64,000 nucleotides of DNA from Ostreococcus lucimarinus (taxonomy: Eukaryota), in assembly GCA_000092065.1 (NCBI GenBank), contig CP000585.1, one strand, 5' to 3'. Below, in pieces: positions 51,895 through 63,825 of the stretch. The notes beneath the pieces are model-generated. The model saw nothing but the letters and a program-made list of their open reading frames with translations. It had not been told where the DNA came from and searched no databases. A program made the position numbers and the translations under genes. Numbering within the stretch: the stretch's first letter is position 1; every line of letters starts with the position of its first letter.

Positions 51895-53478
51895 ATGGAC
51901 CCGCGCTTCGGTCGCGACCGCGCGAACGCGCGCGCGCGCGCGCGCGCGCCGCCGCCGCCGCCGCCGTTGCCGCACCGCGCGCCGCCACCGCCACCGCCAC
52001 CGCCGCACCCCGCGAACGACGACGCGAACGTCGAGATCGACGTCGACGCGCTGCGATCGATGCCCAAGGACGAGCGGCGCGCGCTGGCGCGCATCGCCAA
52101 AGCGCTGCTGTCCGCCGAGGACGAAGAGACGAAGATCGAGCTCGCGGCGGAGTTGCAAAAGAGATGCGCGCGCGCGGCGAATGCGGCGGCGAACGGGACG
52201 GCGACGCCGAACGCGGGACGCGAGGACGACGACGCGCGACGACGCGATGAGGACTCGAACGCGACGGGAACGTCGGCGATGGCGCGCGCGGGCGCGCGGT
52301 TCGGCGACTGGACGGCGTCGCGAGAGGACGCCGAGACGCCGAGGACGAAGAAGCGCAAGACGACGACGAGCGAGACGGCGAGCGGGACGGTTCCGTCGTC
52401 GACCGAACGCGCGGCGCGCATGGATCGCGCGCAGCGATTCGCGCGGGAGGCGATACAGTTCGCGAGCGACGTGGCGAACGCGAAGGGGCGCGGGACGCCG
52501 ACGATGCAGGAGATGAAGATGCGCGACGCCGCGGCGGTGGGGACGAACACGGCGCTGGAGAAGACGTATTTACGCCTGACGGAGGCTCCGTCGATGGCCA
52601 CGGTGCGACCGCCGCACGTGTTAGAGCGCGCGCTCGAGTTGGTAAAGAGTAAATGGGTCGCGCATAAAGATTACGAGGGTTACGCCAAGGATCAGTTGAA
52701 ATCGATCCGGCAGGATTTGACGGTGCAGCACATTCGCGACGGGGATTTGGTGTTGCAGACGTACCAGACGCACGCGCGCATCGCGCTCGAGTGCGGAGAT
52801 TTAGCGGAGTATAATCAGTGCCAAGCCGTGCTGAAGGTGCTTCACGCGGAACTACTCGAGCGCACGTTCGGCGTCGATCACCCGTCGCCGTCGAAAAAGG
52901 GGAAAAAGTCTGCGTCCAAAAAGTCGAGCGGGAAGAAGCGATCGTCGAGCGAACGCGACGAAGACACGGATCGTTTCCCGGAAGGTACGGACGATATCGC
53001 CGAGTTCGCGGCGTACAGATTAATCTACGCCGCGGGCGCGGGCTCGAAGGGCGAGCGAAGTGCCGCGCTTCTGCGCGAGCTTCGCGACATCCCGCCGCGG
53101 CTGCGAACGCACCCCTTCCTGGAGCACGCCGTCCGCGTCTGCCGAGCGCTCGCGTCGTCCAACTTCCACCGTTTCTTCGCCCTGTACAACACCGTTCCGC
53201 GCATGGGCGCGTACCTCATGGACATCATCGCTCCATCCGTTCGCACGGACGCCGTTCGCGCCGTTCTCCGCGCGTACGCTCCCACCGTTCCCGTGGAATT
53301 CGTCGCCTCGGCGCTCGGCTTTTCCTCGAGCGCTTCGTGCGCCGACGCCCTGGCCGAGCGCCATCGCGCCGTCTTCGACGGCGCCGCGCGCGATCGCCTC
53401 GACGTCAGGGCCACGAACGCCGCCATCGCCGCCAACGCCGTTCGACCGTCCGTGTTAGATCGTCTCGCGCGTTTTTAA
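51895..53478 (+). CDS. SAC3/GANP-domain (PCI-like) protein, LENG8/Thp3-like
   Basis: LEKTYLRLTEAPSMATVRPPHVLERALELVKSKWVAHKDYEGYAKDQLKSIRQDLTVQHIRDGDLVLQTYQTHARIALECGDLAEYNQCQAVLKVLH matches the SAC3/GANP family core. The N-terminus is Pro-rich. Confidence 0.6.
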   Translation: MDPRFGRDRANARARARAPPPPPPLPHRAPPPPPPPPHPANDDANVEIDVDALRSMPKDERRALARIAKALLSAEDEETKIELAAELQKRCARAANAAANGTATPNAGREDDDARRRDEDSNATGTSAMARAGARFGDWTASREDAETPRTKKRKTTTSETASGTVPSSTERAARMDRAQRFAREAIQFASDVANAKGRGTPTMQEMKMRDAAAVGTNTALEKTYLRLTEAPSMATVRPPHVLERALELVKSKWVAHKDYEGYAKDQLKSIRQDLTVQHIRDGDLVLQTYQTHARIALECGDLAEYNQCQAVLKVLHAELLERTFGVDHPSPSKKGKKSASKKSSGKKRSSSERDEDTDRFPEGTDDIAEFAAYRLIYAAGAGSKGERSAALLRELRDIPPRLRTHPFLEHAVRVCRALASSNFHRFFALYNTVPRMGAYLMDIIAPSVRTDAVRAVLRAYAPTVPVEFVASALGFSSSASCADALAERHRAVFDGAARDRLDVRATNAAIAANAVRPSVLDRLARF

Positions 53479-59008: not shown

Positions 59009-60037
59009 TTAATCCGACGAGGTTTTAAGCTTCTGAAACTCTTCGTCCAACTCGTCTGTCGCCGACCGCGTCGACGAGCCGTGCTTCTTCTTTGACAGGT
59101 GTTCGGATACATCGGCGTCGTCCTCGACGTCGTCATCTTTGGACGAGTGGCTCGACGAGTGATGCTTCTTCGACGAAGAGTGCTTTGAAGAGAGTTTCGT
59201 GCTCTTCTCTTCTTCTTCTTCTTCTTCTTCTTCTTCTTCTTCTTCTTCTTCTTCGTCGCGATGGCTATGTTTGGAGTGTTTCGAGTGCTTGGAATGGTGA
59301 TGACTGTGACCGATTTTTGCGACGTAATCGACCCCGGGACACTCTGTGGCGTGTATGTTCAAATCGTCGCACACGGCCGGAGGGCAGTACGGCCAACCGT
59401 CCATGGGATCGTCCACGCTTTTCAACATGCACATTCTACACGGCGTCTCGCCCGGCTTCTGACACGCGCTCGGCACGCCCTCGTGGTTCGCGCACTCCCA
59501 ATCGCGAAAGGCGTGACGCCCGGCGTTACGATTGCCGACATCCGTCGAGCAATCACCGAGATCGTACTTCTTCTCCTTCGATCTCGTCTCCACGCCTTCG
59601 CACCCAGAGACTTCGTACTTGTCGCACACCCACGAGCTACACTTCGCCGTGCCCGACCCCTCTTTCGACGCTTCCGAGCCGGCGAGATGACAAAACTGGC
59701 ACCCGTGCGACCCGACGCAGTTCGACGGCACTCCCTCGTCGTCGGTGCAGTGCTTGTTGTACTGCTGATACAGCCCGATCGCTCGATCGCCGTGCGACGC
59801 GTCGCAATCCACCTTCGGCGGCGGCGGCGGCCGCGGCGGATGATGCGGATGCGGCGGCGGCGGCGTCGGCGGCGGCATCGGCGGCGTCGGCGGCGGCATC
59901 GGCGGCGGCATCGGCGGCGCCGGCGGCGACTCCGCCCCGATCCCGAACCCTCCGTCCCACCCCCGTCGCGCGAGCGCCAGCGCGCCGACGCACGCCGCCG
60001 CCGCCGCCGCGCCGACGCGTCCTCGCCACCGCCCCAT
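59009..60037 (-). CDS. Secreted cysteine-rich protein with Pro-rich linker and His/Ser/Lys plus poly-Glu C-terminal tail
   Basis: A signal peptide MGRWRGRVGAAAAAACVGALALA is followed by PPAPPMPPPMPPPTPPMPPPTPPPPHPHHPPRPPPPP. A 160-aa domain then contains about 22 Cys (CTDDEGVPSNCVGSHGCQFCHLAG...CSSWVCDKYEVSGCEG...CRMCMLKSVDDPMDGWPYCPPAVCDD). The tail is HSHHHSKHSKHSKHSHRD followed by E17 encoded by (GAA)n and Ser/Lys/His. It is the C-terminal 342 aa of track ORF 59009..61090. Confidence 0.55.
   Translation of the reverse strand: MGRWRGRVGAAAAAACVGALALARRGWDGGFGIGAESPPAPPMPPPMPPPTPPMPPPTPPPPHPHHPPRPPPPPKVDCDASHGDRAIGLYQQYNKHCTDDEGVPSNCVGSHGCQFCHLAGSEASKEGSGTAKCSSWVCDKYEVSGCEGVETRSKEKKYDLGDCSTDVGNRNAGRHAFRDWECANHEGVPSACQKPGETPCRMCMLKSVDDPMDGWPYCPPAVCDDLNIHATECPGVDYVAKIGHSHHHSKHSKHSKHSHRDEEEEEEEEEEEEEEEEKSTKLSSKHSSSKKHHSSSHSSKDDDVEDDADVSEHLSKKKHGSSTRSATDELDEEFQKLKTSSD
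59207..59255 (-). repeat. (GAA)16 trinucleotide microsatellite inside the CDS, encoding poly-Glu
   Basis: The plus strand reads (TTC)n. It translates to E17 in the secreted Cys-rich protein. Confidence 0.85.
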
Positions 60038-60416
60038 CTCGCGCCCGCGCGCGCGCGCCGCGTCCCCGCCGCGTCCCCGCTCGACGTCTTCGTCCTCGCG
60101 CGCGTCCTCGCGCGCGCGCGCGTCCTCGCGCGTTCGCCGCGCGCGTCCGCGCGTCGCCTCGTCGTCGTCGTCGCTCGCGCTCGATCCCGCGCCCGACGAC
60201 GCGCGCGCCGTCCGCGCGTCGCGCGCCGACGCGCGTTCGCCGCGAAGGAGCGCCTCGCGCTCGTCGCGCGACGACCGCGGCATCCTCGCCCGCGCCGTCG
60301 TCTCGCGCGCGCGACGACGCCGTCGCGATGGTGTTGCGCGCGCGGCGTTACGAAAACCCGTAACACACCGCACACGCGTGCGATCGCGCGCGCGCGTCCC
60401 GTCCCATCGCGCGCCG

Positions 60417-60424
60417 TATTTAAG
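60417..60424 (+). promoter_or_regulatory. TATA box (TATTTAAG) about 90 bp upstream of the PsaG start codon
   Basis: This is an isolated AT-rich octamer in a sequence context of over 70% GC. Its position fits a core promoter for the PsaG exon 1 proposed at 60515. Confidence 0.45.
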
Positions 60425-60514
60425 CCCCGAGGGACTCGCGCTCGAGTCGCGACTCGTCGACGAGATCGGATCCGTCGATCGCGCGAAGATACGCCCGCAC
60501 ACCCCGACGACGAC

Positions 60515-61102
60515 GATGCTCGCGCGCACGACCGCACCGACTCGCACGACCGCCACGCTGCGCAGGTGCGCGCGAAGCGCGACGCGAATCGCGGCGCGGC
60601 GCGACCGCGCGCGCGACCGGAGACCGAGGACGCGCGACCGGAGACCGAGGACGCGAGGACGAGGGAATCGTCGCGCGAGGCGCGGCGAGGCGAGCGATCG
60701 CGCGCGCGAACGGACGAGAGGACTGACGAGACGCGATGGTGACGAATGAATAGCCGCGTGGCGAAGCAAACGCGCACGGCGAAGCGCGGCGCGCGCGTCG
60801 CGGCGCGCGCGTTCGATGACGTGAACGTCGTGATCTCGTCGGCGAACGCGATTTGCCTGGCGTTGGGACGATTCGTGTTTTTGCCGTACCAACGCGCGCA
60901 AGTCGAACGCGTGGGCGCGCCGACGCAAAACGGACAGACGCACTTCGCGGCGGGCGACTCGCGCGCGGAGGAGGCGTCCTTCATCGTGTCGACGAACGAT
61001 CCGGCTGGGTTCACGATCGTGGACCTGCTCGCGTGGGGGTCCATCGGGCACGCCGTCGGATTTCTCGCGCTCGCGTCCCAGTCGGCGCAAACGATGTTGT
61101 GA
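60515..61102 (+). CDS. PSAG: Photosystem I reaction centre subunit PSI-G (PsaG/PsaK family), two exons: join(60515..60564, 60754..61102)
   Basis: Track ORF 60746..61102 encodes [71 protein letters not shown]. This matches Arabidopsis PsaG ([71 protein letters not shown]). Upstream exon 60515..60564 (MLARTTAPTRTTATLR) ends in AG followed by a GTGCGC donor. The 189-bp intron has GACTGAC 25 nt before the TAG acceptor at 60751-60753. The phase-2 join gives a 132-aa precursor with a typical transit peptide. A TATTTAAG TATA box lies at 60417-60424. Confidence 0.65.
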
Positions 61103-61202: not shown

Positions 61203-63611
61203 CTACGTGTGAGGCGGGGGGCGAAGAAACTGCCGCGCGTGCGCGCTCAACTCGCCGGCGTTTTCGAAATCCGACGCCGAGACAAAGGCGTTGACGCGCT
61301 CGAGCTTGAGCAAACGCAACGCGTCGGCGTTCAAATCGAGATCGAAATCGTCGTGAAGTTTTGAAATCGTGCGCGTCAACGCGTCGACGTTTGCGAGATC
61401 GGTCTCGTAGGTCAAGTTCACGCACTCGCGCTGGTGCGCTCGCAAGACGCTCGCCGTCGCCTCGTACCATCGCTTGTCCTCTCGAATGAGATTTCTGAAC
61501 GTTTTCTCGATAAACTTCACCCGCACGTTCGCGGACGTGACGTTCGGATCGCGCGCGGTGATGTTTTCCGCGTCGAAAGGCTCGGCAGCCTCTCGAATCT
61601 GCTGGAACGGCGCGTCGCCGTTCACCGCACGCATCGACGACGCGTACATGTCGAGCTTGTTTTCGCGACTCAAGCACAACAGCACGGGGTCTTCCGTAGC
61701 GGCGTCCAAGATGGCGCTGAGAACATCTTCCGAATGTTTGCTCGTCTCGGGCGTTGAATGGATGTGCGCGCCGATGATGGATACGTACACCTTGTCCACG
61801 CCAGCCTCCCACGCTCGGCTCAATACTTCGTTGACGAACTCACCCGGATACGTCAGCGAGGCGTCAATCGTGGCATCCTTGACGCCGATGTCTTGCAAGT
61901 ACTTTCGGAGCTTTGAACGCCAAGACGTTTCGTCGTCTTTGTCGGGGAGTTCGTCCACCGACCACCAATCGCCAAGGGTGATGTAATTCGCAAAAAACGA
62001 ATCCGTTCGCACCTGGCCGTCTCGCTCCCACAACGTGGACGACGTCGGATGATTGGAAGACGTCGCAAGCGCTTCACCGAGAAGTGACGCGCCGCCGCGC
62101 AAAGGCGACGAAGCGAGCACGAGACGGGCTTTTTTATACACGCCCTCGGTTTCGTGCAATCGCACGCGCGTGACGAGCGAGCTCGTAGCCTCGGACGAGA
62201 GCACGCGAACGAAAGACAGCGCCCACTTGTGCACGAGATCTTCATCTGCCGGGATGTTCTTCTCGAGCCATTCCACCACCATGGCTTGTCGCTCTTGATT
62301 CGTGCACCCATCCTGCCAACTCGCGCCGTGAAACGAAAAGTGGTCGATAGCGTACGATTGCGGGTACGCGCTGGCGATCGACGTGCACGGAAGAGTCGTT
62401 TTCCAAAACGTCCCGTCCGCCTCCTCCACGAGCGCGTTTGAGAGCGACAACGGATTCCAATCATCGTTGCCAGATGTCACACGCCGCCACGTCTGCGTCA
62501 CGTACTTAGTGAACGACGATTTCGTACCATCTAAATCGCTCCCATCCACCGCCTTGCCGTTATTCATCATCCACCGCATGCCAGGATCGTTCTTGGCGTC
62601 TTCGTGCGTGACTTGCTTGACGCACGTATCGAACTCATTTTCGCCGCATCCGAGCGGGTACGCGACGTCGCGATCGAGCCTCAGTATCGTGTCTCTCAAA
62701 TCGTTCGCACGAATGATGTGCGACAACCACACAGGACCCGTGATCGCGTTCGCGATGCACCGCTTGCCGAAATCTATGTTTTGCAGGTATCCGTCCGAGG
62801 AGGTGTCGTTGAACAAACTTCGAAACACGCTCGCTCCGGGCGTGAGCGCGCCGAATATCCCAGCGCTAAAGAACCTCGAGTCCCCGGGGTCGGCCACCAT
62901 GAACACCTCCTTGTTCGCCCGCAACGTCTTATGAAACAACGGCGTGATGTCCTTGAACAACTCCACGTTCGTGTCCAAGTACAATCCGCCGTGACGAAAC
63001 AACACCTCGTACTTCATCAAATCCACCAACATCGAATACACGTTCGATCCCGTGAGTTGATGAAACGCCCGCCCGCGCTCGAGCGTCGCCAGCGTAATCG
63101 GAAAGTTCCTCTCATTAATGTCTCCCTCCGTCCACAGCCGCATCTCCCACCCAGCCGCCTCCAACACCCTTCGGTTGCGCTCGAAAATCATTCGCTTCAC
63201 CCCCGGCACCTCGCTCCCGAGCCAAATCTCGTGCGCCACGCGCACGAACGCCCCCGCGTCGCTCTGTTTCGCCAGCATCTCCTCCCTGGCCACCATCCCA
63301 CACACGCCCAGCGTCAGCATCGTCGCCACGACGATCGGATGCGTCGCCCACGTCGTCGTCGCGCGCAGCCAGCCGCGTCGTCGCTCGGGGTGTTGACGCG
63401 TCGTCGCGTCGCCGCGCTCGACGTCCGGCGCGTCATCGCGCGCGCGCGCGAGCAGCGCGAGCGACTCGTCGCCGCCGGCGATCGCCGCCGACCGCGCGCC
63501 GTCGCCGACGCCCATCGCCGCGTCGTCTGCCGTCCGCTCGCCGATGGTGTTACGCCGCGCGCGAACTTCGAGGTCGATACGAAACGCCGTCTTGGTTTGC
63601 GCACCATGCAA
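61203..63611 (-). CDS. GT32-like glycosyltransferase (DXD sugar-binding region) with large uncharacterised C-terminal domain
   Basis: After a signal-anchor (THPIVVATMLTLGVCGMVA) comes IWLGSEVPGVKRMIFERNRRVLEAAGWEMRLWTEGD...SNVYSMLVDLMKYEVLFRHGGLYLDTNVE. This matches the Gly_transf_sug (OCH1/MIPC-synthase-type) region including the DxD motif. The following roughly 550 aa have no recognised domain. Confidence 0.6.
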   Translation of the reverse strand: MHGAQTKTAFRIDLEVRARRNTIGERTADDAAMGVGDGARSAAIAGGDESLALLARARDDAPDVERGDATTRQHPERRRGWLRATTTWATHPIVVATMLTLGVCGMVAREEMLAKQSDAGAFVRVAHEIWLGSEVPGVKRMIFERNRRVLEAAGWEMRLWTEGDINERNFPITLATLERGRAFHQLTGSNVYSMLVDLMKYEVLFRHGGLYLDTNVELFKDITPLFHKTLRANKEVFMVADPGDSRFFSAGIFGALTPGASVFRSLFNDTSSDGYLQNIDFGKRCIANAITGPVWLSHIIRANDLRDTILRLDRDVAYPLGCGENEFDTCVKQVTHEDAKNDPGMRWMMNNGKAVDGSDLDGTKSSFTKYVTQTWRRVTSGNDDWNPLSLSNALVEEADGTFWKTTLPCTSIASAYPQSYAIDHFSFHGASWQDGCTNQERQAMVVEWLEKNIPADEDLVHKWALSFVRVLSSEATSSLVTRVRLHETEGVYKKARLVLASSPLRGGASLLGEALATSSNHPTSSTLWERDGQVRTDSFFANYITLGDWWSVDELPDKDDETSWRSKLRKYLQDIGVKDATIDASLTYPGEFVNEVLSRAWEAGVDKVYVSIIGAHIHSTPETSKHSEDVLSAILDAATEDPVLLCLSRENKLDMYASSMRAVNGDAPFQQIREAAEPFDAENITARDPNVTSANVRVKFIEKTFRNLIREDKRWYEATASVLRAHQRECVNLTYETDLANVDALTRTISKLHDDFDLDLNADALRLLKLERVNAFVSASDFENAGELSAHARQFLRPPPHT

Positions 63612-63825
63612 AAACGTCTCTTCGTCTTCCGAACGCGATCATCGCCCGCCGCGCGCCGCGCGCGCGGCGTCACACGCGCGCGCGCGACGACGCGATCGAT
63701 CGACGCGCGCGCGACGGACGCGCGCGGCGAACGCGCGCGCGGCGCGAGACGACGCGCGGCGCGACGTCGGGGACTCGAATTCGGACGGTTCGGTGAAAGC
63801 CGCGCGCGGCGAGGCGTCGGTGACG

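Follow-up and report, generated by a model that had tools for sequence, protein, structure and literature searches.

What does an 802-codon open reading frame (ORF) of the picoalga Ostreococcus lucimarinus encode, when at first only its N-terminal part was recognized as a known enzyme? The ORF lies on the minus strand of a 64,000-nucleotide stretch of contig CP000585.1, referred to here as the window. The first-pass annotation described a GT32-type glycosyltransferase (GT) with a DXD motif, confined to the N-terminal 250 amino acids (aa) behind a signal anchor and fused to a 550-aa C-terminal domain of unknown function. Our analysis leads to a different picture, to which we assign a probability of about 0.6: a type II membrane protein, encoded by one nuclear gene and consisting of a cytosolic tail, an anchor, a GT32-like domain of GT-A fold, a helical linker, and an Stf0-like sulfotransferase (ST) domain, in which the tethered GT and ST would make a sulfated glycoconjugate. 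The protein is indeed long for GT32, as had been noted. However, the putative 550-aa unknown domain was resolved into ~165 aa that complete the GT-A domain (including a 57-aa loop), ~285 aa of an Stf0-like ST domain, and a linker of ~58 aa without a match. Residue numbers are counted on the 802-codon ORF, with its TTG as residue 1, and all coordinates are those of the window.

61203..63611, minus strand: whole ORF as flagged in the ORF list, 802 codons plus stop, uninterrupted.

The C-terminal half contains the following elements, in which PAPS denotes 3'-phosphoadenosine-5'-phosphosulfate.

61272..62129, minus strand: Stf0-like PAPS-type ST domain, residues ~495-780 (~285 aa), assigned by fold, motifs, and transitive homology.
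62055..62126, minus strand: strand-loop-helix corresponding to the 5'-phosphosulfate-binding (PSB) element, residues 496-519 (RLVLASSPLRGGASLLGEALATSS), from the AlphaFold2 model and the alignment.
61623..61685, minus strand: strand-turn-helix corresponding to the 3'-phosphate-binding (PB) element, residues 643-663 (VLLCLSRENKLDMYASSMRAV), from the same model and alignment.

The first hint of a PAPS sulfotransferase came from alignment A1, in which SSPLRGGASLLGEAL resembled a PSB element and LSRENKLDMYASSMRA a 3'-phosphate-binding element. An AlphaFold2 model of residues 437-802 showed a predicted local distance difference test score (pLDDT) of 83 and a predicted TM-score (pTM) of 0.83. In this model the PSB element is formed by a strand (model residues 60-66, residues 496-502, RLVLAS), a loop, and a helix (model residues 69-83, residues 505-519), and the PB element by a strand (model residues 207-212, residues 643-648, VLLCLS), a turn, and a helix bearing S658 (model residues 216-227, residues 652-663). 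A strand-loop-helix PSB and a strand-turn-helix PB are the two canonical sulfotransferase elements (PMC11625862). Foldseek with the C-terminal model returned a single match at E<=1e-3, Stf0 (1tex_A), with a probability of 1.00. The structure prediction that the first-pass annotation had proposed as a check speaks against its novel-domain claim.

Homologous proteins connect the window protein to known sulfotransferase families. The family consists of two clades, clade A, to which the window protein belongs, and clade B. Two full-length paralogues, P0159 and P0160, can be aligned to residues 494-773 of the window protein with E values of 3e-21 to 4e-21 and 27% identity, and their scores lie above the Pfam cut-offs for Sulfotransfer_3 (PF13469; 35.6 and 34.2 bits, cut-off 27) and for Stf0 (PF09037; 24.7 and 22.1 bits, cut-off 22). 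Positions 4-155 of the Sulfotransfer_3 profile span the PSB element in P0160, and positions 106-150 of the Stf0 profile are matched by the PB-homologous stretch of P0117 and P0159. Sulfotransfer_3 was also matched by four members of the window clade, weakly and under the cut-off (14-19 bits against 27). Despite the ~27% identity of the two clades in the ST domain, R505, G507, R649, N651, and S658 are invariant across both, as are E513, W528, D537, and Y735-E736 round the putative active site, and the PSB loop of the window protein corresponds in the alignment to a canonical ARSGST in clade B. These fold, motif, and alignment data together indicate that residues 495-780 are an Stf0-like PAPS sulfotransferase domain, which is predicted to transfer sulfate. 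The C-terminal region would accordingly hold a second catalytic domain of a known kind.

Several observations weigh against a functional Stf0-like enzyme. The window protein itself gave no Pfam sulfotransferase match even at E<=1, PDB-sequence searches with the protein and with the alignment profiles A1, A2, and A4 detected no sulfotransferase, and the TM-scores in Foldseek were low (0.32 and 0.45). With no direct Pfam or PDB-sequence match, the ST assignment is based on the fold, the motifs, and transitive homology. In the window protein, the PSB loop reads R-G-G-A-S instead of the canonical R-S-G-S-T, and no residue was assigned as the catalytic base; as candidates, E513 and D537 are invariant, and H521 is invariant only within clade A. 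In addition, the clades share less identity in the ST domain (27%) than in the GT domain (48%), which indicates faster evolution of the former. The missing Pfam match, the degenerate loop of the window clade (RGGAS or RAGGA), the absence of an assigned base, and the faster evolution would all fit a pseudoenzyme, namely a PAP(S)- or acceptor-binding or structural module that regulates or targets the GT. We consider such a pseudoenzyme unlikely, since the residues that define PAPS binding (R505, G507, R649, and S658) and those round the putative active site do not vary in either clade, Stf0 itself carries Arg and Ala in its PSB (PMC11625862), and variation at positions 4-5 of the loop is also seen in clade B (SGAQ). 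It is very improbable that the domain is a P-loop nucleotide or sugar kinase and not a sulfotransferase: a regular-expression search found no Walker A motif GxxxxGK[ST] anywhere in the protein. Matches to chaperonin, NDK, VraS, and USO1 in the PDB-sequence searches (E 0.3-1) were dismissed as chance, and weak MEDS and E2-E1mid matches in the Pfam and NCBIfam searches of the window protein as noise.

The N-terminal part of the protein contains the elements listed below.

62304..63254, minus strand: GT32-like retaining GT-A glycosyltransferase domain, residues ~120-436, from Pfam, fold search, and motifs.
62967..62975, minus strand: D213-T214-N215, the family version of DXD with the second Asp replaced by Asn, from the alignments.
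62430..62600, minus strand: lineage-specific variable disordered loop inside the GT domain, residues 338-394 (57 aa), from clade comparison and a model pLDDT below 50.

Pfam placed Gly_transf_sug (PF04488) on residues 191-226 with an E value of 1.2e-5 and 26.3 bits against a cut-off of 23, and the same family was matched in 17 of 18 family members. In the fold search, the GT-A fold of the model matched SetA, TcdA/B, and Och1 best. The GT motifs comprise HEIWLG (residues 127-132), SMLVDLMKYE, which is SD..R-like, GGLYLDTNVE, TGP (residues 291-293), and AIDHFSFHGASW (residues 421-432). HEIWLG and AIDHFSFHGASW line up with the IHYVWLG motif and the C-terminal IHHA-EGSW motif of OCH1-like outgroups, respectively, and because the latter motif lies at residues 421-432 the GT domain reaches approximately residue 436, not residue 250. 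The agreement of Pfam, fold, and motifs supports the GT32-type assignment made at first, and glycosyl transfer is the activity that it predicts. Conservation within the protein is highest in the GT domain (47-84% identity). The loop at residues 338-394 is missing in clade B, and is longer and of low complexity in a clade of roughly 900-aa proteins. The nearest non-fusion relatives are OCH1-like proteins with PF04488, PF05704, and PF12919. Among them, the outgroup proteins P0183-P0189, from outside the window, are 505 aa in length and carry two tandem OCH1-like domains with D-T-D in nearly all copies.

The DXD motif of the first-pass annotation proved to be D213-T-N215. Legionella SetA has D-S-D at the aligned position, and the nearest GT32 outgroups have D-T-D; every outgroup sequence covering the motif has the canonical DXD, which is D-T-D in most, whereas D-T-N is invariant among all members of both clades, so that the family departs from the canonical GT32 signature. 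In several related toxins the loss of the second Asp of DXD abolishes activity, and in clostridial glucosyltransferase toxins its mutation severely reduces activity. These facts count against an active GT, and the model has low confidence in the C-terminal third of the GT domain. The toxin data raise the alternative that the GT32-like domain is dead through the change from DXD to DXN and serves to bind a sugar or nucleotide and to present a substrate to an active ST, which is favored by the contrast between D-T-N throughout the family and D-T-D in the nearest outgroups. A dead GT is nevertheless improbable, because the remaining GT32 motifs are strongly conserved, because no other part of the protein is as conserved as the GT domain, and because the Asn is fixed and not drifting. 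Bacterial GT6 enzymes in which NXN replaces DXD, such as BoGT6a, are active and metal-independent. For these reasons of fixation and conservation, the invariant D-T-N suggests an altered, possibly weaker or metal-independent binding of the nucleotide-sugar diphosphate, and not decay of the site.

Between the two catalytic domains lies the only part of the protein there for which no known domain was matched.

62130..62303, minus strand: conserved three-helix linker, residues 437-494 (~58 aa), from the AlphaFold2 model of residues 437-802.

The three helices correspond to model residues 2-16, 22-35, and 41-51, and the pLDDT in successive 10-residue blocks is 86, 94, 84, 68, and 87. W448, E450, H461, W463, and R469 are conserved within clade A, and the identity to clade B is only 16-21%. 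The view that the GT32 domain is followed by a truly novel 550-aa domain, or that two genes were artificially joined, is the least credible of the alternatives. Pfam and NCBIfam detected nothing in residues 230-802 of the window protein, Gly_transf_sug being the only match, so that the domain search upheld the GT32 part and by itself left the remainder as it had been described. However, fold, motifs, and transitive homology assign all but ~58 aa. Two adjacent genes, or an artefact of the gene model, were ruled out by the continuous frame and by the conservation of the fusion in both clades; dozens of contigs encode a single protein with both domains, and the transcriptome-derived P0117 (Mamiellaceae sp. 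RCC2288) carries both as well.

The placement of the protein in the membrane was deduced from its N-terminal region.

63348..63515, minus strand: charged, poorly conserved N-terminal tail, residues 33-88, variable in the alignment and probably cytosolic.
63288..63347, minus strand: single hydrophobic segment, residues 89-108 (THPIVVATMLTLGVCGMVA), a type II signal anchor at the Kyte-Doolittle maximum.

A Kyte-Doolittle window of 19 residues peaks at 1.64 in residues 89-108, which form the sole strongly hydrophobic segment of the protein, in agreement with the signal anchor noted before, and a hydrophobic stretch occurs at the equivalent position in both clades. The GT domain contains five invariant cysteines. 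Since the single anchor is N-terminal and these cysteines are invariant, both catalytic domains probably have a lumenal, Golgi-type location.

The order of tail, anchor, GT-A domain, linker, and ST domain follows from the evidence above, and the mechanism proposed for it is as follows. Both catalytic domains would be located on the lumenal side of the secretory pathway, probably in the Golgi. From a nucleotide sugar, the GT domain would transfer a sugar in alpha linkage onto a glycoconjugate acceptor, and the ST domain would then sulfate, with PAPS, a hydroxyl of that sugar or of an adjacent residue. In an alternative order, the ST domain would make a sulfated acceptor that is used by the GT domain. 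In either order, the product may be a glycolipid or glycan that carries sulfate and is confined to Mamiellophyceae.

Known enzymes share parts of this design. The ST domain has the fold of the mycobacterial trehalose 2-sulfotransferase Stf0 (1TEX; PF09037) and of Sulfotransfer_3 (PF13469), which includes CurM/OLS (4GOX), as indicated by two methods. As in Stf0, the PSB strand-loop-helix carries Arg and not Lys and the 3'-PB strand-turn-helix carries Arg and Ser; paralogues also score above both Pfam cut-offs. The bacterial Stf0 is soluble and stands alone, with ~240 aa, whereas the domain described here (~285 aa) has extra loops, is eukaryotic and probably lumenal, and is fused behind a GT; it also differs in the RGGAS loop of the window clade and in a similarity too low for a direct Pfam or PDB-sequence match. 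With GT32 enzymes (the alpha-1,6-mannosyltransferase Och1, MIPC synthase, A4GALT) and the GT44-type toxins (SetA, TcdA/TcdB) the protein has Gly_transf_sug and the GT-A fold in common. The HxxWxG, GGxYxD, TGP, and C-terminal H..G.SW motifs and the type II anchor of GT32 are also present, in contrast to the family-wide D-T-N, the 57-aa disordered loop, a C-terminal D-H-F in place of H-H, and the covalently attached sulfotransferase. In BoGT6a-type bacterial GT6 enzymes, which belong to another CAZy family, both Asp residues are replaced, whereas only the second is replaced here. An analogous design is found in heparan sulfate N-deacetylase/N-sulfotransferase (NDST), a bifunctional type II enzyme of the Golgi. 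However, the partner of its sulfotransferase is a deacetylase and not a glycosyltransferase, the ST domain here is Stf0-like and not of the heparan-sulfate branch, and nothing points to common descent of the two fusions.

The reading frame requires a correction at its 5' end.

63516..63611, minus strand: first 32 codons of the ORF, a probable 5' leader, from the TGA and indel evidence.
61203..63515, minus strand: probable true coding sequence from the ATG (residue 33) to the stop, 770 aa; this is the first in-frame ATG, and conservation among homologues begins downstream of it.

The listed TTG start sits directly behind an in-frame TGA, and the residues upstream of Met33 are unconserved in the alignment with homologues. 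Just upstream of the ORF, at 63612..63650 on the minus strand, a 4-nucleotide indel (atcg) separates the window from the 99%-identical metagenomic P0001; it creates or removes an upstream ATG, which results in 802-, 811-, and 812-aa versions from prokaryote-style gene callers. In view of the TGA, the indel, and the unconserved residues, translation probably starts at the ATG at 63515. The window is GC-rich (~0.63), and long spurious ORFs occur on both strands in this region. By codon position, the GC content of the ORF is 0.58, 0.45, and 0.77, and these values are similar across all domains of the ORF. A search of 5.8 billion proteins yielded 20 homologues, most of which aligned over the entire length, with 34-99% identity in the best local alignment, and the full-length collinear homologues span 99% to 31% identity. 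Because of these full-length collinear homologues and the uniform codon-position GC, the ORF at 61203..63611 is a genuine coding sequence, a single intron-free gene and not a chance ORF in GC-rich DNA. A tblastn search found no second copy of the gene within the window.

The distribution of the C-terminal region, another check proposed at first, was profiled by an exhaustive hidden Markov model search of 1.84 billion representative proteins, which gave only 39 matches. Among them was the divergent full-length relative P0117 (E 7.6e-36), and its addition to the profile revealed the second clade, ~720-aa proteins of identical two-domain architecture. One of these, P0156, aligned to the window DNA in one high-scoring segment pair of 677 aa (E 7e-96). 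The ~720-aa members of clade B (P0117 and P0152-P0161) have no 338-394 loop and carry a canonical RSGST loop, or RSGAQ in some members. Both clades occur in Mantoniella species (the P0011 cluster and P0117). Every family member with an organism name belongs to Mamiellophyceae, including Mantoniella antarctica and Mamiellaceae sp. RCC2288. The fusion thus appears to form a very narrow family of two paralogous clades restricted to Mamiellophyceae, by which the lineage-specific glycan-modifying enzyme suggested in the first-pass annotation becomes, more sharply, a Mamiellophyceae-restricted GT-sulfotransferase fusion; its activity on glycans is predicted. A scan of the viral contigs of IMG/VR found no relatives, and there is thus no evidence for a prasinovirus origin. 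Both domains come from known superfamilies, and in the literature searched no description of a GT32-sulfotransferase or other GT-ST fusion was found. It is their combination, with the DXN active site and the two predicted activities, that makes this an uncharacterized GT-ST fusion.

The surroundings of the gene were also inspected. A 118-aa ORF at 60746..61102 on the plus strand encodes a PsaK-type subunit of photosystem I (PF01241 in the identical contigs) and is convergent with the GT-ST gene, with ~100 nucleotides between their ends. Identical copies of the GT-ST gene are present on three independent assemblies, each with the convergent downstream PsaK-type gene. The PsaK-type ORF and its proximity confirm a photosynthetic eukaryote with a very compact genome. 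A long ORF at 59009..61090 on the minus strand was not matched by Pfam; psaK, on the opposite strand, overlaps its upstream third, which is probably non-coding, and its downstream two thirds contain an internal Met with a hydrophobic leader, the proline block PPMPPPMPPPTPP, two Cys-rich repeats, HSKHSKHSKHS, and a run of 17 Glu. The product may be a secreted proline-rich protein. Among five large neighboring ORFs, Pfam matched only the 527-aa ORF at 51895..53478 on the plus strand, which has a SAC3/GANP domain (E 1.6e-23); with four of the five unmatched, nothing suggests a functional gene cluster. The GC content of 2-kb bins ranges from 0.54 to 0.72 in the window, and is low at 16-18 kb and 40-42 kb and high at 36-38 kb.

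Ostreococcus and Micromonas, which have no cell wall, rank among the most abundant eukaryotic phototrophs of the sea; to our knowledge, almost nothing has been reported on their surface glycans. In Ostreococcus, the expression of sulfotransferases and glycosyltransferases has been linked to prasinovirus susceptibility (bioRxiv 10.64898/2026.02.10.705097). This link concerns genes of the outlier chromosome, and the GT-ST gene, a conserved core gene, is not shown to be among them. We tentatively put forward the stronger proposal, itself doubtful at present, that the protein is a bifunctional glycosyl- and sulfo-transferase of an undescribed kind, with a GT32 site changed from DXD to DXN; this single polypeptide would make a sulfated glycoconjugate that is found on the surface of Mamiellophyceae only. 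If this is true, the product could belong to the surface that is recognized by viruses or grazers. For annotation, "GT32 plus unknown" is replaced by a defined two-enzyme architecture. The family would provide a natural example of a GT32 active site in which DXD is replaced by DXN, and its ST domain would add to the Stf0-type sulfotransferases, which are otherwise bacterial, a eukaryotic branch that is probably lumenal. From a conserved enzyme that is confined to one algal class and links glycosylation with sulfation, a specific sulfated glycoconjugate can be predicted for Mamiellophyceae, and this one gene would provide an entry to the product.

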